A DNA stretch of 64,000 nucleotides from Promethearchaeia archaeon (GTDB taxonomy: Archaea; Asgardarchaeota; Lokiarchaeia; Sigyniarchaeales; SOKP01): the NCBI GenBank assembly GCA_029856155.1, contig JAHQWL010000040.1, positions 1-64,000 of the forward strand, written 5' to 3'. The position numbers and the translations under genes were made by a program. The notes below the pieces were generated by a model. The model did no database searches. It was not told the DNA's origin and was given only the letters and a program-made list of their open reading frames with translations. Below are positions 49,508 through 61,542 of the stretch, piece after piece; position 1 is the stretch's first letter; the number at the start of each line of letters is the position of its first letter.

Positions 49508-50659
49508 TTAAAAGCCAACTATGCTCGTAGGCGTAAAATCATTATCTGAATCTACAGCAGCTCGTACATATGGTGAAACAGGCCCATTAGCTAAGACCAT
49601 TATTTTTATTTTCGATCCCATATCAGGCTTATTTTGAACGCCAAATTTTAATTGAGCGGTTTCTGGGATCTCATTTGAGATAGTTGATACAACTTTATCA
49701 ACTTTAGATAATGTTAAAGTATGATCACCAGTAACAGATACTAAACATCTATTCACTTGTGTTGGGTCTGGCTTTAAAAGAGGATTATTTAACGCTAATC
49801 TTGCTTTTTCTATTAAATCTGATTCTTCGCCTAAACATTCTGCTATTCCCACTAAGCCAGAAGGATATTTTCCATTTGGGTTTTCCAAAAGTGTTTTTTT
49901 TACATCTGCAAAATCAATGTTAACTAAACCACAATTATTAATTAAATTTACAACTTCACCAATATTTCTTATTAGTATTTCGTCCATAATCTTAAAGCCT
50001 GTTATCATAGGTATTTTTCCGACAATTCCTAGCAAATTATCGTTTGGAATTGGAATTAAGAAATCAGAATATTTAGCAAGATTTTTTAAACCTAGTTGAG
50101 CTCTTACTGATCTTTGCTTACCTTCAGAGCTAAATGGAAGTGAGCAAAAAGTAACTACAATTGCATTATTTTTTTTTGCTTCTGCTGCAATAATGGGTGC
50201 AGCTCCAGTTCCCGTACCACCACCTAATCCGCAAGTTAAAAAGATTATATCAGCATTTAAAGTTTTATTTAACCTGTCGCGGTCTTCTTCTGCTGCTTCA
50301 GCTCCAACTGAAGGGTCATTGCCTGACCCTAATCCATTACATCGTTCTTTTCCAATTAATATTTTATGCTTTGAATTTGAGTAATATAAGTCATGCGCAT
50401 CAGTATTAATATTTACTGTCTCAGCATTACTAATGCCCATATCATCTAATCTTGAAACTGTATTATTTCCAGCACCTCCTACACCAACCACGTATGTTTT
50501 AATTTTCAAAACTTTTAATAGATCTGCTAAAAATTTGTCATCATCACAATTAGGGTTTGAGTTAGGATTTTGGTTAAACTTAGCTATTTCATTGAACCTT
50601 TCTCTTACAGATGATCGAGATTTGGCTAATTCAACTAGGTCAAATATATCATCACTCAT
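49508..50659 (-). CDS. ftsZ: Cell division GTPase FtsZ
   Basis: GVGGAGNN, NTD, GLGGGTGTGAAP, PNDNL, NIDFADV. Confidence 0.93.
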   Translation of the reverse strand: MSDDIFDLVELAKSRSSVRERFNEIAKFNQNPNSNPNCDDDKFLADLLKVLKIKTYVVGVGGAGNNTVSRLDDMGISNAETVNINTDAHDLYYSNSKHKILIGKERCNGLGSGNDPSVGAEAAEEDRDRLNKTLNADIIFLTCGLGGGTGTGAAPIIAAEAKKNNAIVVTFCSLPFSSEGKQRSVRAQLGLKNLAKYSDFLIPIPNDNLLGIVGKIPMITGFKIMDEILIRNIGEVVNLINNCGLVNIDFADVKKTLLENPNGKYPSGLVGIAECLGEESDLIEKARLALNNPLLKPDPTQVNRCLVSVTGDHTLTLSKVDKVVSTISNEIPETAQLKFGVQNKPDMGSKIKIMVLANGPVSPYVRAAVDSDNDFTPTSIVGF

Positions 50660-51136: not shown

Positions 51137-52447
51137 TTATATCTCAAGATTAATTTCCCCGTACGTTCCTCCTCCCCCTGGAGTATAATTAATCTCGTCA
51201 TTTCTCATTGCTTTTATAATTGACGCTATATTCTCATTAAACTTTTTAATATGATTAATAGGTGTATCGATTATTATCTCAAATTCTGAACCTAACTTTT
51301 CAATAATATTATTATAAGCATTGAGTACCGTTTTACTAGTTTTACTTGTTATGTGTTTCACTGAACGTATGATATCGATTAATGGAACAGCATTAATATA
51401 ATCTGGTCTGTGATCTGGATGATTGGGTTTTTCACTAGTTGAAATCAGATCTATTCTTTCACTTACACCCAATTTTATTTTATAATTTTTACTTAATTCT
51501 TTCTTACAAGAAGGACATACTATTTTGGCCTTATTTACTTGACTAATATAATCTCGTTTAGCGATATCGGGATCATTAGTATATATAATTATAAAATTCT
51601 CTGTTATCGAATATTGGCTAAAGACGTCATTAAACGACTTTCTTGTTTTTTTAAAAAGAATTCTTCTTCTACATTTATTGCAAAACATATTATAATATTT
51701 TCCGAGTTTAGGATGCAACCCTACATTTAGTGATATTTTTCTATTATCTTTTCTTCTTATCGCTAATACTATTTCTTCAAAGGAGGGGTTATCAATATCA
51801 AATCTATTAAATTCTCGGCCTAAAGAGCGTGGTCCTTGTGAATGTGCATCGCTATTACTTAGAAAAGTTACATCTCTTAAACATTCCAATCTGTCTGCAA
51901 GATTCGTATTGGCAGATAATCCAAGTTCTATAAAATGAACTTTTTTTGTAGCATCTTGATAACAATCTGAAAGAGTTTCAAATCTATTTTGCCGAAATAT
52001 CGCTTTAAAAGGAGTAAAAGCGTGAGCAGGACCAATTAAAGCACCTTCATCTGAGATTATATCAACCAATTCTGCGGGAGGTAAATTAACCCTTGGACGT
52101 CCACCCCATTCACCCAAAATATTACTTGAATAAGGTTCTAATTTCTTTTGAATATTTCTAACCATCTCAAAATCTTCAAAAATGACAACTTCATGAACAC
52201 TTTCTTGATCTTCTATTTCAGATTGAAGAATAAAATTAACATCTTTATAATTATAGGCTCTATCTTTATTTTTTTCTAGTTTTTGTTCTAAATATTTTAA
52301 CCAATCTGGCTGTAAAACATCTCCAGTTCCTAAAATATTTAAACCTTTTTTTTTGCAGGTATCGATCATAGTATCTAAATTTAAAGATTTTGATACTCCA
52401 ATAGAATGGGGGGAATGAATGTGTAAGTCAGCATTGAAAAAATTCAT
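51137..52447 (-). CDS. PHP-domain endonuclease Q (TIGR00375-like) family protein
   Basis: ADLHIHS, GTGD, PAHAFTP, ELGLS, NSDAHS, LGRE, LGKY, Zn finger, GGGGTYG. Confidence 0.88.
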   Translation of the reverse strand: MNFFNADLHIHSPHSIGVSKSLNLDTMIDTCKKKGLNILGTGDVLQPDWLKYLEQKLEKNKDRAYNYKDVNFILQSEIEDQESVHEVVIFEDFEMVRNIQKKLEPYSSNILGEWGGRPRVNLPPAELVDIISDEGALIGPAHAFTPFKAIFRQNRFETLSDCYQDATKKVHFIELGLSANTNLADRLECLRDVTFLSNSDAHSQGPRSLGREFNRFDIDNPSFEEIVLAIRRKDNRKISLNVGLHPKLGKYYNMFCNKCRRRILFKKTRKSFNDVFSQYSITENFIIIYTNDPDIAKRDYISQVNKAKIVCPSCKKELSKNYKIKLGVSERIDLISTSEKPNHPDHRPDYINAVPLIDIIRSVKHITSKTSKTVLNAYNNIIEKLGSEFEIIIDTPINHIKKFNENIASIIKAMRNDEINYTPGGGGTYGEINLEI

Positions 52448-52519: not shown

Positions 52520-53566
52520 TTAAATAATGATCATTTTATCTTGAATTTGATCACTTAATAGAACTCTAAAATATTCTAATTCCTTCTTGAAAATTACTTT
52601 TTCTAACTTTCCTTCAACTAATACTTTTTCATTTTCTCTTGCGTGCTCACAAAAGCGACCTCTGAATGAGCTGATTTCACTAATATCTTTTATATTAATT
52701 TTGTTTGAATTATTACTAATTTCAAGAATTTTTAAAGGATTGATTTTATATGAACAAGGTGTAAAAATAGAGTCTCTTGAATCTATGATGTGTGCTTTAA
52801 GTTTAATTCTACCAAAATTTTTATATTGATAATCATAAAAATTTCCTTTCCAATCGTTGGGGCTTTTAATATATCTAATAAAAAAATCGGTATCCATATA
52901 TTTTCCCTGATGCTGTTTTCTTTGTTCACTTCTCAGAAAATCTTCAAATGGAATATTAGAACCACCTACTCTCCAATTATAATGCGATTTATATTCATCT
53001 ATATTATACTTCCGACAATTATTTGATTTCTCAAAGATTTTTACCAATTTTTCTTGAAATTTAACACTTGTTTCTGTACCATAAATTATTATGTCAATGT
53101 CAGATTCTTCAGTATTCAGTCCCACCATTATTGATCCTGTAATCCCTATTGAACCCTCAGAAAGATTTCCTTGCGAGCTAAATAATTCACATAATGTTCT
53201 AGAACGCTTTTCGCTAGTTGATAATATTTTTTTTTCTAATAGTTTTTTAAAGCAGTTTCGTGGGGTATAAATTTTTTTTATTTCTTTTTCTTTAACTCCT
53301 TGGACCTCTAAATCAAGTTCTTTAGAAAAAAAAAGATATTCTGGATATTTTTCTCTCAAAAGGGCATATCTATCTTCTAATTTGTAAATTTTTTTAAAAT
53401 TAATACCATTTTTTATCCGGGATCCCTCTGGATGAGGAAAAAATCGTAAAAAGCATATGATATAATCATTTGGATGGAGAAGACCTTTTACATCAAAAAA
53501 TAAATTATCATTTTTTGTTTCTATATAATCTCCTTCAATTCCTTTTAGAATTTTCATGAAATTCAC
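52520..53566 (-). CDS. Predicted nucleotidyltransferase (COG1665-like)
   Basis: GITGS...SDIDIIIYG. Confidence 0.8.
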   Translation of the reverse strand: MNFMKILKGIEGDYIETKNDNLFFDVKGLLHPNDYIICFLRFFPHPEGSRIKNGINFKKIYKLEDRYALLREKYPEYLFFSKELDLEVQGVKEKEIKKIYTPRNCFKKLLEKKILSTSEKRSRTLCELFSSQGNLSEGSIGITGSIMVGLNTEESDIDIIIYGTETSVKFQEKLVKIFEKSNNCRKYNIDEYKSHYNWRVGGSNIPFEDFLRSEQRKQHQGKYMDTDFFIRYIKSPNDWKGNFYDYQYKNFGRIKLKAHIIDSRDSIFTPCSYKINPLKILEISNNSNKINIKDISEISSFRGRFCEHARENEKVLVEGKLEKVIFKKELEYFRVLLSDQIQDKMIII

Positions 53567-53577
53567 AATTCAATTTA

Positions 53578-54735
53578 TTAATAACCAGAGGGAGTTTTTG
53601 TTTTAATATCTGATGGAGTCTTTGTGTTAATTGAGGGAGTTTTCTTTCTTATCTTTCTCAATTCTCTTTCAAATGCCTTTTTCTCATTTAGAAATCGTTG
53701 TTGATCTTTTTCTAATTTTTCTCTTTCACGTTTGATAATATTTTTATCACTTTCTAAGTTCGCTTTTTGCTTTTCCAGTTGTCTATATTCATTGTTTAAT
53801 CTGTTAAATTTTTCCTCTAAATTTGGAATTTTGTGATTCAAGGAGTGATATTTATTTTCTAGGGCAGGAATTTTTTTTTCTAATTCTTTTAATCTTGCTT
53901 CTTGTTGATGTCTTCTTTTTTCCAAATCATTTACATTCCTTTCTATCTTATCTTTATATTTTTTTAGATCTGCTTTTTTCTTATCAATTTCACGAGTTTT
54001 TAGGTCAATATCTTGCTTTTTATAACGAGTTTTTTCTCGTTCTTCTTTTAATTTTTTCTTTTCGTCAGAGATTCGATTTTTTTCATCACTAATCTCTCTC
54101 CTTAGACTATTAATTTCCTTATTTAAATTATCCCGATCTTTAGTTAAATCTTTGATTTCGTTTCTTAAATCCATTAACTTAGATTCTAGATCATTAATAG
54201 TTCTTTCTAAAGCATTTTCTCTTCTTTCCATACCAGGAATTTTTGTTTTTATTTCCTTTATTCGTTTTTCTGTCCGTTGTTTTTCCCATTCTAGATTCTT
54301 TTTTTGATCCCCGATATCCTCTCTCAATTTATCTAATTTTTCTTGAAATCTCTCTAATTCAGCATTTTTTTGATCTAATTCCTGATTTTTATTTCTGATT
54401 TTTTCTCTAAATTGTTGTTCTTTAGTTGTTAAATCACTATTCTGTTGTTTTATTTGATTTTTCGTTCTTTCTAACTCATCTCGTAAGTTATCTCGTTGTT
54501 CAAGGAGATATTTAATTTTAAGTTCTTTTTCTTTTCTTTTTTTCTCAAGATCTTCAACATTTTCTTTATAATTTTCAATTTGATTAATAACTTTTTCCCA
54601 TTCACTCTTTTCTTTATCTAACTTGATCCTTTCTTTTTTTAGTTTTTTAAGCAATTTTTTATCCGAAATTGTATCTAGTTTTTCATCTGGTGTTTTTTCT
54701 CGAATTTGATACTTAGGAATTGGTTCGTCGTTCAT
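53578..54735 (-). CDS. Long coiled-coil protein with C-terminal KTPS repeats
   Basis: Continuous E/K/R/L heptad-like sequence; tail KKTPSINTKTPSDIKTKTPSGY. Confidence 0.8.
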   Translation of the reverse strand: MNDEPIPKYQIREKTPDEKLDTISDKKLLKKLKKERIKLDKEKSEWEKVINQIENYKENVEDLEKKRKEKELKIKYLLEQRDNLRDELERTKNQIKQQNSDLTTKEQQFREKIRNKNQELDQKNAELERFQEKLDKLREDIGDQKKNLEWEKQRTEKRIKEIKTKIPGMERRENALERTINDLESKLMDLRNEIKDLTKDRDNLNKEINSLRREISDEKNRISDEKKKLKEEREKTRYKKQDIDLKTREIDKKKADLKKYKDKIERNVNDLEKRRHQQEARLKELEKKIPALENKYHSLNHKIPNLEEKFNRLNNEYRQLEKQKANLESDKNIIKREREKLEKDQQRFLNEKKAFERELRKIRKKTPSINTKTPSDIKTKTPSGY

Positions 54736-54935: not shown

Positions 54936-55361
54936 ATGGGTTTTGATAATGAATTTGATGATGAATTTGATGAACAAGAATTTGATGAAGATTTAGAAGA
55001 ATTAGAAGAAGAGTCTGAAGAAAATACAGAAGAAGATAAAGAAGAACCTTTTGAAAAGATTCCTGAGGAAGAAGTTGAAACAAAAACTCCTACTACTAAA
55101 ATTGTTTCTGGAGGGAAGAAGATTTCAGTATATTTTATGTCTACCATTGGTCCAGGTGAGAAAAAACAAAAACTAACTGTTAATGATGGAAATCTTGTCG
55201 GTGATATTAAAGAAACCGTAGCAAATTTATTTGGTTTAGATCCTGCTGACTTTCATTTATCTTGTGGTGGTATAACAATGGATGAAACTAATTCTTTAAG
55301 CTATTATACTATTTCTGATGGAGATGATATACTTTTAATTCCAGCTAGTACTGCCGGTTAA
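54936..55361 (+). CDS. Ubiquitin-like protein 1 with long acidic N-tail, C-terminus STAG
   Basis: Beta-grasp pattern V.DIK..V......L..GG..MD...L..Y.I.DGD.I.L; terminal Gly. Confidence 0.85.
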   Translation: MGFDNEFDDEFDEQEFDEDLEELEEESEENTEEDKEEPFEKIPEEEVETKTPTTKIVSGGKKISVYFMSTIGPGEKKQKLTVNDGNLVGDIKETVANLFGLDPADFHLSCGGITMDETNSLSYYTISDGDDILLIPASTAG

Positions 55362-55406
55362 ATCTTTCTTATAGAAATAAAGGGTTTTAAAATTAAGGTC
55401 GCTTTT

Positions 55407-56204
55407 TTAATTTTTCTCTTTTCGTGAGGGAATTAGAGCAATTTCATCGTCATCATCGATACTATAGTCCTTTATTTGTGAGTTCTCATCTAATAATATC
55501 CCCCCGGAAGATAAGAGAAAATCATGTTGTTCATAATCAAATAATAGTGCAATTTTCTCTTTAACTGCTCTTGCTGATTCATCTGTATCTATTATTATAA
55601 TTTTCGTTTTCTCACCCGGTTCCAATAGTGATCGTATATATACGCGAATTTGATCTTCTATTTCTATAGAACTTTTAGGAGGTGTATAAGTTATTGCACC
55701 ATTAATATTATCTCTGTTTTCCAACATATTTTCGATTAACTCTTTTCTCTCATTTGGGTCAAAATATATCATTTCTCTGATAAACAATATCTTGTCCATT
55801 TTTGATAACCCCAATAAGTTGATTTTATTTAATTCTTCCTGACTTAAGATTGAAAAAATATATTTATCAATAATTGGCATATCCTTATAGGACTCATTTG
55901 ATTCAACATAAGCTTCTATTGAGGGCAAAGCATCAATATAATCTTCAATAATAGTGAAATTGTTCTTTTGAATTGACTTTGGTTTTGCGATATACTTTTT
56001 ATCTTTTATCGTCTTGAAGGGACTACTACTTTTAGACTGTAAAACTGAATAAATTGTACTAGTGGATAAAACAGCAACACTACCAATAGTAAGAACAAGA
56101 AATAATGGCGTATTTTCTATGTGATATAGGAAAAAAAAGACATAGAACAAAATACACACAATATAAAGAGCGAAAACACTTAAAATTCTATAATTTTTTC
56201 TCAT
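55407..56204 (-). CDS. Membrane-anchored (2 TM) protein with C-terminal Ubl domain lacking terminal Gly
   Basis: C-terminal domain aligns with the two Ubls (PGEK...DF.LSSGG..LDENS...DY.IDDDDEI.LIP) but ends SRKEKN. Confidence 0.82.
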   Translation of the reverse strand: MRKNYRILSVFALYIVCILFYVFFFLYHIENTPLFLVLTIGSVAVLSTSTIYSVLQSKSSSPFKTIKDKKYIAKPKSIQKNNFTIIEDYIDALPSIEAYVESNESYKDMPIIDKYIFSILSQEELNKINLLGLSKMDKILFIREMIYFDPNERKELIENMLENRDNINGAITYTPPKSSIEIEDQIRVYIRSLLEPGEKTKIIIIDTDESARAVKEKIALLFDYEQHDFLLSSGGILLDENSQIKDYSIDDDDEIALIPSRKEKN

Positions 56205-56289
56205 GATTTTTTAATTAGATTGTTTTCTGAATTTAAAATATTTAATTTAAAATTTAAATGGGATTGGAATAAAATTGGAGTTTTTAATC

Positions 56290-56961
56290 TCATTCACCTT
56301 GAATTGATTTTCTCACATTGAAATATTTTCTAAGATCTAATTTGAATATATTCCTATTTTTTTCTTTTTCAGTTTTTATTAACTTTAAATCTATTAAAAT
56401 ATCTATATATTTTTTAATAGTGCTATGATTCTTTTTTAAACCATCTGCTATCTCTGTGATTTTTAATGCTTTATTTTCAATTCTCATAAATTCTATTATA
56501 TCTTGAACGAGATTCTTTTTCAAATAATAGTGAAACGGGTCAAGTTTTGGATTTGAATCAAATTTGAAGAACATTCTATGATTATTGATTTGTTTTGACC
56601 TAACAAATTGAAATTTTTCTAAGCATGATAAATGCCATAAAGCTTGATTACTGCCAATTTTTAGAACCTTCATTATTTCATTAATATTTGATGGATTTTT
56701 TTTTATAAAATTGAAGATTTCATTTCTTATAGGGTGTTCTATAATATTATTTTTCATTAATTTTGTTCCAGGGATAATAATACGCCGTTTAATTAAATCC
56801 TTTAAAACTAACTCGATTCTATTCTCGTTTATATTAGGGTTGTATCGTACTCTATTATTTATAAAGGAGATAATTTCTCTAATTGAAAAGAAGGTTTTCT
56901 TTTTTAAATACTCCCTTACTAATTCAAGAACAACAGATTCCGTATTATCCAGATGATTCAT
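56290..56961 (-). CDS. Multi-winged-helix transcriptional regulator
   Basis: RNEIFNFIKKNP...WHLSCLEK and ITEIADGLKKNHSTIKKYI HTH motifs. Confidence 0.8.
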   Translation of the reverse strand: MNHLDNTESVVLELVREYLKKKTFFSIREIISFINNRVRYNPNINENRIELVLKDLIKRRIIIPGTKLMKNNIIEHPIRNEIFNFIKKNPSNINEIMKVLKIGSNQALWHLSCLEKFQFVRSKQINNHRMFFKFDSNPKLDPFHYYLKKNLVQDIIEFMRIENKALKITEIADGLKKNHSTIKKYIDILIDLKLIKTEKEKNRNIFKLDLRKYFNVRKSIQGE

Positions 56962-57229
56962 AAGTCTTTACTTTTATTCCGTCAATTGATCCGGTTTTTA
57001 TAATTATATACTCTCTCTACAACAACTTTTCATAATTCATATATATATTGATAGGGTTTCATACAATTTATAATATAATTTCTTAAGAATTCTAATTTTC
57101 ACCTTTTTATTTTTGATAAGAACTTGAATACTTCAAAATCATTCCAAAGGGTTTTATAATATCTTTTTAACGCCATTTTATTAAGACTAATAAAAATTTA
57201 AAAATTAAAAATAAATGGAAGTGATATGA

Positions 57230-57562
57230 ATGAGTTTTGATGAATTTGATGAAGATTTAGGAGGAAATGAACCTGTAAAGTCTAAAACTCCTGCTAGTAA
57301 AACTCCCGCTGCAGGAAAGAAATTGACTTTATACTTTATGTCAACAATTGGTCCTGGCGAAAAGAAGGAAAAATTAACTGTAAATGACAGTAATCAAGTA
57401 AGAGACATTAAACAAACATTAGGAAATTTATATGGTCTTGATCCTAATGATTTCCATATTTCTAGTGGAGGGGTGACTATGGATGAAAATAGTTCCCTAA
57501 GCGACTATGATGTAAATGATGGTGACGATATTCTATTAATTCCCGCCAGTACAGCTGGTTAG
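57230..57562 (+). CDS. Ubiquitin-like protein 2, C-terminus STAG
   Basis: Close paralogue of 54936; directly upstream of E1. Confidence 0.87.
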   Translation: MSFDEFDEDLGGNEPVKSKTPASKTPAAGKKLTLYFMSTIGPGEKKEKLTVNDSNQVRDIKQTLGNLYGLDPNDFHISSGGVTMDENSSLSDYDVNDGDDILLIPASTAG

Positions 57563-58973: not shown

Positions 58974-59501
58974 ATGAGTATAAGAAGTAGTCGTATTTCC
59001 CGAGATTTTGCGGGATTAAAGAAAATGCTGAAAGAGGGTAGTCTTGTTCAATTAAACCCATTTAATCCTAAAAGGAAGAGTATTGATCATTTAGCAATTT
59101 CATTTAAAGGACCTAAAGGTACTGTTTATGCAGGTGGTCTTTTTAGGCTAGAATTGAAATTCCCAGCTCAATATCCTAATCAACCTCCTTTTGTTAGATT
59201 TCATACTCCAATTTGGCATCCAAATTTTTGGCCAAAACCATCTGAATATAAAGGACAAAGAAATATTTGTCTAGCGTTAGTAGATCCATCGTTTATAGGT
59301 AAAAAAGGGGGATGGAGTCCTTCAAAAACAGCTGTTACGGTTGTTCAAGCGATAATTGCTATGTTAAATACACGCGGTAAATATGTAAATCCTACTGATG
59401 TTTTCAATAAAAAAGCAGCAATTGAAATGATGAAAAATCCCAAATTTTTCGAGAAAAAAGTAAAAAATCTTGTTAAGAAGTATGCAAACAAAAAATGGTG
59501 A
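58974..59501 (+). CDS. Ubl-conjugating enzyme E2
   Basis: GPKGTVYAGG, FP.QYP..PP, IWHPN...ICL...WSP. Confidence 0.92.
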   Translation: MSIRSSRISRDFAGLKKMLKEGSLVQLNPFNPKRKSIDHLAISFKGPKGTVYAGGLFRLELKFPAQYPNQPPFVRFHTPIWHPNFWPKPSEYKGQRNICLALVDPSFIGKKGGWSPSKTAVTVVQAIIAMLNTRGKYVNPTDVFNKKAAIEMMKNPKFFEKKVKNLVKKYANKKW

Positions 59502-60354: not shown

Positions 60355-61542
60355 GTGCCTAAATTTAAAGCTGTCGCAATAACACTGACGATATTTTTAT
60401 TTATAGGCATAATACATGGTGCAATTTTAAATTCTTTTAATGTATTTGTGAGCTGGTTATTAATAGGAATATGGTTAATTTTTTCTTTCAAAGTTTTAAA
60501 AAATATTAAACAATATCGTGAATATCGAAGTCCTCACAATACTGCATTTTTTACCGTTGGTCCTGTTTTTGTAGGTATATTTTATTCCATCTGGGGAAAT
60601 TTTACTGGTTTATTAGGAGAAAATCTTCTTGTAATTTCAGATTTATATTTAAGTTGGTGGAGTATTCTATTTGGATTTCCTTATGTATTGTATGGCTCAA
60701 TATCGTTATATCATTGTTTTAAAAAATATAATGTAATTTATTTTGGGACAAAATCAATAAACGCACGAAAATTTGGCTATATGTTAGGTTTTTCAATTCT
60801 ATTTTTCATAATTGTTTACTGGATAAGTTTTTATTCACTTATCGACTACTATGAATCGTTATTAATACCTCTCCATTTTTTAATAGATCTTAATCTTTTA
60901 TTATTGCTTATTGGTTCTATATTAATAATAATTATTCACGGTTTTTTTGGAACTCGAACCCAATTACCCCGATTGACAAGAGATTATATAACTAGACGTA
61001 CAAGTAGATTGAATGATTTAGCATCACCTAATAGGCGTAGAGAAAGTACCCGTAGTACAATACGATCATCCCCCACACCATCAACTAGAACAGTATCTCG
61101 TACTTCAAGATCAGTTTCTAATTCCTCAAGATCAACTCCTACTGCACATATACAATCAAGGAGTTCTAGAGTCAAAACAACTACTCGAACTACAAGTGGT
61201 AGTAAAACAGGACAGCCATTTAGAAGTAGTAAAAGTTCTATAAAACACATAAATTTTAAGTTATATAGACCAAAAGCTGCGAATTTGTCAGTGGAAGATT
61301 TTAAATGCATATTTTGTTTTAGATTACCCGAATTTCCTAAGGATAAGGGAAGAGGAATAATTTTATGTCCAAATTGTAGATATCCCGCTCATGCGGATGA
61401 ATTCAAAGATTGGCTCAGAAGCTCTCGTCTTTGTTCTAGATGTAATGCTCCTATTCCATCAAGTTATAGGAAAAATCCTAAAATTATTAGTGTAAAAAAT
61501 TATATAGTCATTTATAAGAGCTTATTAAGCAAAAGACTGTAA
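60355..61542 (+). CDS. Multi-pass membrane RING-finger protein (putative E3)
   Basis: About 5-6 TM helices, S/T/R-rich linker, CIFC...CPNC...HADE..W......CSRC. Confidence 0.8.
   Translation: MPKFKAVAITLTIFLFIGIIHGAILNSFNVFVSWLLIGIWLIFSFKVLKNIKQYREYRSPHNTAFFTVGPVFVGIFYSIWGNFTGLLGENLLVISDLYLSWWSILFGFPYVLYGSISLYHCFKKYNVIYFGTKSINARKFGYMLGFSILFFIIVYWISFYSLIDYYESLLIPLHFLIDLNLLLLLIGSILIIIIHGFFGTRTQLPRLTRDYITRRTSRLNDLASPNRRRESTRSTIRSSPTPSTRTVSRTSRSVSNSSRSTPTAHIQSRSSRVKTTTRTTSGSKTGQPFRSSKSSIKHINFKLYRPKAANLSVEDFKCIFCFRLPEFPKDKGRGIILCPNCRYPAHADEFKDWLRSSRLCSRCNAPIPSSYRKNPKIISVKNYIVIYKSLLSKRL

Follow-up and report, generated by a model that had tools for sequence, protein, structure and literature searches.

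Two ubiquitin-like modifiers with an Ala-Gly end and unlike acidic arms at an E1-E2-JAMM locus of a Loki-type Asgard archaeon

We analyzed a 64,000-nucleotide stretch (positions 1 to 64,000) of contig JAHQWL010000040.1 from a Promethearchaeia archaeon (GenBank assembly GCA_029856155.1), here called the window, which is AT-rich (∼25-35% G+C). It carries two genes for ubiquitin-like proteins (Ubls), Ubl1 and Ubl2, next to genes for an activating enzyme (E1), a conjugating enzyme (E2) and a JAMM metalloprotease. Ubl1 and Ubl2 are, in our judgment, probably two long-separated paralogues of one ubiquitin-type modifier family that is present in a subset of Loki-type Asgard archaea and is served by a shared cascade. 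The two proteins end in the same nine residues, with a single Gly preceded by Ala at the stop codon, and differ in the length and charge of an acidic N-terminal arm.

Results

Sequence and fold of Ubl1 and Ubl2

The initial annotation, made from the letters of the DNA, had described two open reading frames (ORFs) that would be born mature, with PASTAG at the stop codon and a single terminal Gly, and frames and codons agree with it at both positions (Table 1). The C termini of Ubl1 and Ubl2 both read ...DGDDILLIPASTAG; the final Gly codon is GGT in each, followed by a stop (TAA or TAG), and the last nine residues, LLIPASTAG, are identical. BLASTP aligned the two proteins with 67 identities over 97 residues (69%, E 3e-50), and the near-identical core stretches that had been quoted from them are indeed present in both.

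Ubl2 matched the ubiquitin model PF00240 with 28.2 bits (29.2 for the core alone), above the Pfam cut-off of 25.4. Structure prediction, which had been proposed as a check, returned a ubiquitin-type fold for Ubl2: the AlphaFold2 (AF2) model, computed from an alignment of 45 sequences, has a mean predicted local distance difference test (pLDDT) score of 77 and a confident beta-grasp core (∼90 for residues 31-105), with strands at 31-38, 45-52, 75-79 and 100-105 and helices at 57-68 and 90-93. The best Foldseek match of this model was the ubiquitin of Caldiarchaeum subterraneum (6fno/6fj7), followed by ubiquitin variants, ISG15 and SUMO1, and the matches to archaeal and eukaryotic ubiquitin had a probability of 1.00 and target-normalized template modeling (TM) scores of 0.83-0.90.

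Searched against the PDB, a profile of the family also picks out ubiquitin, in an alignment that stops at ubiquitin residue 67 with nine residues to follow in both proteins; LLIPASTAG therefore pairs with HLVLRLRGG, and PASTAG with LRLRGG, and the C-terminal Gly of the Ubls stands in register with ubiquitin Gly76. The end is not a di-glycine: an Ala precedes the final Gly, with at least 90% conservation in the family.

The SUMO model PF11976 (Rad60-SLD) gave the Ubls 20.1-21.0 bits, below its cut-off of 23.8, and membership of the SUMO family was rejected on this score. UFM1, ATG8 and ATG12 had been named as precedents for a single terminal Gly, and the I-P-x4-G spacing of the Ubls had itself prompted a comparison with UFM1. 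The UFM1 model is absent from the Pfam matches of the Ubls even at E 10, the E1 at the locus is of the canonical type and the E2 is a UBC-fold protein with HPN...Cys, so that kinship with UFM1 was rejected on Pfam, E1 and E2 evidence and the three precedents are analogies only. By profile and by model, the fold is ubiquitin-type and the Ubls lie outside the UFM1 and SUMO families.

The Ala-Gly end in relatives

Among the 120 closest database homologues, 109 have PASTAG at the stop codon and 8 have STAG followed by two residues. In the 45-sequence alignment, which reaches down to ∼31-40% identity, P105 is invariant and S107, A109 and G110 (Ubl2 numbering) are at least 90% conserved. Representatives of clusters at 50% identity keep I-P-x-S-T-A-G to ∼40% identity, at the stop codon or before short, unconserved extensions; among the Ubl ORFs of related loci, 18 of 105 have 1-7 extra residues after AG, without a common sequence. 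Conservation of STAG had been proposed as a check, and conservation of the terminal Gly among homologues had been set beforehand as the test on which the proposal would stand or fall: the Gly is kept together with the Ala before it, nearly invariant down to ∼40% identity. Judged from these alignments, the Ala-Gly end is a signature of the family and not chance.

In two relatives, complete units, each an arm plus a core, follow one another in tandem, with the junctions immediately behind STAG or SQAG: three units in P0121 (L081:59-1177) and two in P0122 (L083:205-957), the last unit in each being capped by 2 residues. A genome scan with P0121 led to two adjacent separate genes, and no fusion, in the distant related locus L084. 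Because Ala-Gly is conserved and is then followed by variable extensions or by joined units, we take it to be the functional cleavage and conjugation end. These sequences suggest that a protease, presumably the JAMM enzyme by analogy with that of Caldiarchaeum (PMC5654768), cleaves behind Ala-Gly in the extended and tandem relatives.

The Ubl domain also occurs as the extreme C terminus, ending in STAG or SRAG, of HerA-like ATPases, Roadblock proteins, Cdc48N+VWA proteins and zinc-ribbon proteins. The HerA-like (∼592 residues), Roadblock and Cdc48N+VWA fusions are among P0274-P0290, P0140, P0125, P0152 and P0154, and the HerA fusion lies less than 2 kb from a free Ubl gene in some genomes (e.g., G041:C4). 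An apparent Ubl-E1 fusion of 534 residues, P0271, was set aside: it has lost LLIPASTAG and resembles the product of a frameshift or an assembly error, not a real fusion.

Two paralogue clades and their distribution

Relatives of the E1, 69-97% identical to it, were found in ∼60 genomes labelled Promethearchaeota and allied names, and in ∼45 of 62 related loci the genes stand in one order, a long-arm Ubl, two further genes, a short-arm Ubl and the E1; the distance between the Ubl genes is also conserved in related loci. A tree of the Ubl cores, built on 80 columns and with many of its inner forks unresolved, separates a short-arm clade of 49 rows that includes Ubl2 (Shimodaira-Hasegawa-like approximate likelihood ratio test [SH-aLRT] support of 92) from a long-arm clade of 47 rows that includes Ubl1 and the four single-copy genes of the most distant loci (SH-aLRT of 95). 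Both clades are kept across ∼60 species-level genomes. In an even sample of the phylum the family is present in 71 of 201 genomes and confined to 7 of 27 families; it occurs in 33 of the 40 genomes of the window's own family and in none of the 43 of another.

The N-terminal arms

The acidic Ubl1 tail with repeated Phe-Asp units and the short Ubl2 tail that had been described are both present in the sequence. Residues 1-61 of Ubl1 include 28 Asp or Glu (46%) and four FD[DEN] units, and they also carry an acidic spacer and a single TKTP; residues 1-30 of Ubl2 start with MSFDEFDEDL and hold two FD[DEN] units and two KTP motifs. The net charge is −29 for Ubl1 and −9 for Ubl2. The tails therefore differ in the copy number of the same motifs and not in their kind. 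The likeness to SUMO-style tails holds in that both are disordered N-terminal arms; in the AF2 model of Ubl2, residues 1-28 have a pLDDT below 50.

Conservation of the FDEFD-type repeats, another proposed check, was borne out, each paralogue clade keeping its own tail design. The short arm reads M-S-F-D-E-F-D-E-D-L, a few residues, V-K-S-K-T-P and a second K-T-P. The long arm has 2-5 (D/E)-F-D-E repeats ending in F-D-E-D-L-E, an acidic spacer of 15-40 residues and 1-3 K-T-P motifs. The spacing of Phe and Leu in the arms (i, i+3 or i+4, i+7) would put their side chains on one face of a helix.

Enzymes of the operon

Downstream from Ubl2, the gaps before the E1, E2, JAMM and membrane protein genes are 84, 67, −7 and 29 nucleotides (nt). 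In the E1, a GxGGxG motif lies at residue 47 and CxxC motifs at 179 and 324; the candidate catalytic residue, Cys196, falls in the segment aligned to the catalytic Cys of SAE2. The best PDB matches of this E1 are SAE2 (136 bits), UBA1 and UBA3 (128-136 bits), with 62 bits for UBA5 and 42 bits for ATG7. The E2 reads HPN-x14-Cys99 and, aligned to Ubc15, has a 7-residue insert between HPN and Cys compared with ordinary E2s. It is very basic, with 33 Lys and Arg against 9 Asp and Glu (net charge of ∼+24), and its mean column identity over 39 orthologues is 91%; both the insert and the net charge are kept in the distant locus L084. The motif of the JAMM protease is HSHPSYGCFLSSED. This enzyme is likely to be the deconjugase and, by analogy, likely also the trimmer of precursors in relatives.

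The multi-pass membrane protein that follows is likewise conserved in L084. It has no Pfam match at E<0.01 and faint ones to Prok-RING_1 and zf-RING_16 (E 0.25); its Cys/His region makes it a RING-like candidate for the ligase (E3).

Table 1. Positions of the two Ubl genes, the downstream enzymes and neighboring genes in the window
Feature	Position	Strand	Evidence
Ubl1, long-tail paralogue, 141 aa	54936..55361	+	ORF; ubiquitin-type beta-grasp, residues 62-141
Ubl2, short-tail paralogue, 110 aa, first gene of the E1 operon	57230..57562	+	ORF; PF00240 match; AF2 beta-grasp, residues 31-105
E1-like activating enzyme, 419 aa	57647..58906	+	PF00899, E 5e-61
E2, 175 aa, UBC fold (UQ_con)	58974..59501	+	PF00179, E 9e-26
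JAMM/MPN+ metalloprotease, 276 aa	59495..60325	+	PF01398, E 5e-17; intact HxHx7SxxD
Multi-pass membrane protein with basic Ser/Thr/Arg linker and C-terminal Cys/His zinc-finger region	60355..61542	+	ORF
Membrane protein, 265 aa, with C-terminal ubiquitin-like domain	55407..56204	-	PF00240, 24.8 bits, residues 195-257
Protein with two winged-helix (ArsR/TrmB-like) domains, between the Ubl genes	56290..56961	-	PF01022, E 2e-7; PF03444, E 2.5e-5
Coiled-coil protein, 385 aa, divergent from Ubl1	53578..54735	-	Only coiled-coil-type Pfam matches
(aa, amino acids)

Neighboring genes and other ubiquitin-type genes of the genome

The membrane protein with a ubiquitin-like domain that lies between the Ubl genes is present at the same position in many relatives. 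It ends in ...LIPSRKEKN, without a terminal Gly, and is therefore not conjugatable. Farther upstream, the ORFs at 51137-52447 (−) and 52520-53566 (−) look conserved, the second with a nucleotidyltransferase domain (PF01909, E 4e-6), and an ORF of 383 residues at 49508-50659 (−) with a GGGTGTG signature has, by eye, the look of the FtsZ/tubulin family.

The same genome has further genes of this kind on other contigs. Contig C54 (L079:5618-8600) carries a Ubl ending in VIGG+S, an E2-like gene, an E1 of 294 residues, a JAMM protease and a small zinc-finger protein; contig C35 (L078:6721-10176) carries an E1 of 527 residues and an E2 of 172 without an adjacent Ubl; and contig C52 (L066:1444-1704) carries a separate Ubl frame ending in QAGG+F. 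With Ubls of the Gly-Gly type and other E1/E2 pairs present, the Ala-Gly cascade is additional and not the only ubiquitin system of the organism. The cascade of the VIGG+S Ubl adjoins three Roadblock/GTPase-like paralogues.

Discussion

A probable single cascade for two tags

The initial annotation had proposed two tags on one cascade, which might be read differently. Gene context and conservation support the first part of this well, with a single set of E1 and E2 in the locus and identical last nine residues in both tags. Since their cores are nearly the same and these nine residues are identical, Ubl1 and Ubl2 most likely share one cascade. What we observe are sequence motifs, how well they are conserved, the fold and the neighboring genes, and from these we infer the chemistry, the sharing of the cascade and the roles of the arms. 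Activation by the E1 and transfer to the E2 are predicted from gene adjacency and intact motifs: the E1 of the operon would adenylate the terminal Gly, take the tag onto Cys196 and hand it to Cys99 of the basic E2. Lysines would then receive the tag, a step in which the membrane zinc-finger protein probably assists, and the JAMM protease would take the tag off again and, in relatives with extensions or tandem units, would also trim after Ala-Gly. Depending on whether Ubl1 or Ubl2 was attached, arms of unlike length and charge would be placed on the target.

Several points weigh against this reading. Ubl1 scored 21.4-23.0 bits against PF00240, below the cut-off that Ubl2, to which it is 69% identical, passes. 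The tandem forms P0121 and P0122 were seen only on metagenomic contigs of ∼1.2 kb, without gene context, and the membrane zinc-finger protein is a candidate RING protein by faint matches. SIAG or SVAG replaces STAG, which both Ubls of this genome have, at the end of roughly half of the long-arm orthologues, and in genomes with such ends the enzymes might distinguish the two tags. Two other E1/E2 pairs are present in the genome, and cross-talk with the Ala-Gly tags is therefore possible. Activation and conjugation of Ubl1 and Ubl2 are predicted from the genes, and any substrates are putative.

Alternative explanations

The arms of Ubl1 and Ubl2 could instead serve the cascade itself. In that case their role would be to bind the basic E2 (or the E1 or E3) and to control how the tags are charged, discharged or built into chains, with the KTP lysines as acceptors and the coiled-coil neighbor as a substrate. 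The consensus lysine in the N terminus of SUMO-2/3, which is an acceptor site, provides a model for the KTP lysines. We regard this explanation as possible, though on balance improbable. The opposite charges of the E2 and the Ubls fit it, and so does a complex prediction for the E2 and residues 1-62 of Ubl1, each supplied as an alignment, which scored 0.48 compared to 0.02 for the best of three controls and was returned as "weak support"; the runs agreed in at least 62% of contacts, and the pLDDT of the partner was at least 52. In the calibration of the tool, 58 of 80 solved complexes passed, as did 2 of 110 mismatched pairs. Passes at 0.60 or below comprised only 7 of the 80 solved complexes and both passing mismatches, and by this measure a pass at 0.48 is wrong in more cases than it is right. 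Charge was not matched in the controls, so unspecific acid-base attraction could explain the score, and it came without a contact map. The modeled contact between the acidic tail and the basic E2 may hint at the E2 rather than at a downstream reader, as a lead only.

The K-T-P motif bears on the same explanation. Across the genome, single K-T-P motifs show no enrichment (180 found, 164 expected), which counts against this explanation. At least two [ST]KTP motifs, however, occur in only 3 of the 3488 ORFs of the genome, namely, the coiled-coil neighbor, Ubl2 and the copy of Ubl2 on another contig, and the C terminus of the coiled-coil protein, ...IK[ST]KTPSKY, is conserved in ∼35 related loci (e.g., L002:1925-3082). 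The domain-fused members of the family lack the acidic repeats and mostly keep KTP just before the beta-grasp, a further point in favor of this explanation.

Drawn together, these features would describe a second, SUMO-like system in Loki-type Asgard archaea, with coded arms whose Phe repeats dock on the E2 or on a reader, K-[S/T]-K-T-P after a hydrophobic residue as the acceptor consensus, chains built on the arms, the coiled-coil protein as a substrate and the paralogues as signals of differing strength from one enzyme set. We consider this fuller picture unlikely as a whole. If it were true, the tandem precursor genes would represent a polyubiquitin-style gene organization before eukaryotes.

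Ubl1 and Ubl2 might also be functionally redundant, serving mainly to increase dosage or to regulate it, and the difference between their tails would then have no specific meaning. Besides the 69% identity of the cores and the common ending, this is favored by the separate upstream regions (200 nt, AT-rich, for Ubl1 and 268 nt for Ubl2) and by a third, short-arm copy of 110 residues with a PASTAG end on contig C24:30900-31232 (L069:1369-1701), which stands alone among unrelated small zinc-ribbon genes and whose core is 93% identical to that of Ubl2; second short-arm copies recur in the genus. Redundancy predicts loss or homogenization, however, and the long- and short-arm clades stand side by side in ∼45 loci with their own conserved tails. 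The distant locus L084 likewise keeps two different Ubl paralogues, one ending in HSTAG and born mature and the other ending in VSTAG plus three residues, directly upstream of a single E1 and the same order of E1, E2, JAMM and membrane protein. Redundancy therefore seems quite doubtful to us.

It is very improbable that the Ubls are not conjugated to proteins and act as sulfur carriers, like MoaD, ThiS, Urm1 and the archaeal SAMPs, or as noncovalent adaptors: the E1 does belong to the ThiF/MoeB superfamily, the SAMPs do both jobs (sulfur carriage and conjugation) and protein conjugates of Ubl1 and Ubl2 are a prediction from the genes, but profile and fold match ubiquitin proper, neither Ubl has a Pfam match to the ThiS or MoaD models, the E1, in which Pfam finds a ThiF domain only, aligns best with Cys-bearing eukaryotic E1 subunits, a UBC-fold E2 with HPN...Cys and a JAMM isopeptidase lie in the same operon, and precursor and tandem forms exist in the family. 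The sulfur-carrier reading was judged unlikely on the Pfam and E1 evidence.

No known lineage is closer to eukaryotes than the Asgard archaea, and the family bears on the open question of how many parallel Ubl systems arose from a single ubiquitin system. An Ala-Gly family with its own E1, E2 and JAMM protease beside systems of the Gly-Gly type, paralogues with differing arms, and precursor, tandem and fused relatives are signs of such diversification, which suggests that it was already under way in Loki-type Asgard archaea. The last 49 residues of the tags contain no Lys or Arg, and trypsin would therefore leave a very large remnant; standard K-epsilon-GG remnant proteomics would miss conjugates of the Ala-Gly tags.

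Comparison with known systems

The operon of Caldiarchaeum subterraneum, which has been reconstituted, codes for ubiquitin, E1, E2, a small RING protein and an Rpn11-like JAMM protease (PMC5654768, PMC6043591), the last of which cuts the precursor right after the conjugation end (PMC5654768). Both systems are archaeal operons of a ubiquitin-fold modifier, a single-chain E1, a UBC E2, a zinc-finger protein and a JAMM protease. The Caldiarchaeum modifier has a Gly-Gly end with a 9-residue propeptide and no acidic arm and is encoded by one gene, and its RING protein is small and soluble, whereas the tags of the Ala-Gly locus are born mature, come as two or three armed paralogues and stand beside a zinc finger on a multi-pass membrane protein.

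In Asgard archaea, ESCRT (endosomal sorting complex required for transport)-linked ubiquitin has been described for the Heimdall, Odin and Hel lineages (PMC9192718, bioRxiv 10.1101/2023.07.25.550441). The cascade of a Hel-lineage member, with a di-Gly end and a propeptide, has been reconstituted (bioRxiv 10.1101/2023.07.25.550441), and Hatano et al. reported a separate "Ub region" in Lokiarchaeota genomes (PMC9192718). The Ala-Gly system has the superphylum and the kind of E1/E2/RING cascade in common with these; the texts of PMC9192718 and bioRxiv 10.1101/2023.07.25.550441 make no mention of an Ala-Gly end, acidic arms or tandem precursors.

With UFM1, ATG8 and ATG12 the Ubls share a non-Gly residue before a single terminal Gly, but the E2 of the locus has the UBC HPN motif, unlike UFC1, ATG3 and ATG10. 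With SUMO they share a disordered, lysine-bearing N-terminal arm before the beta-grasp, and SAE2 is the nearest sequence match of the E1 at the locus. SUMO itself has a Gly-Gly end after cleavage by a Cys protease, a heterodimeric E1 and an arm without acidic Phe repeats or KTP. P0121 and P0122, both from outside the window, resemble eukaryotic polyubiquitin genes in that complete units are joined head to tail after the conjugation end; their units, however, carry their own acidic arms and differ in sequence. None of the Ala-Gly end, the acidic arms, the paired paralogues and the tandem precursors was described in the literature searched, an absence that is no proof of novelty. The archaeal ubiquitin operon is a known type of system, and the Ala-Gly end, the arms and the paired paralogues are a new variation on it.

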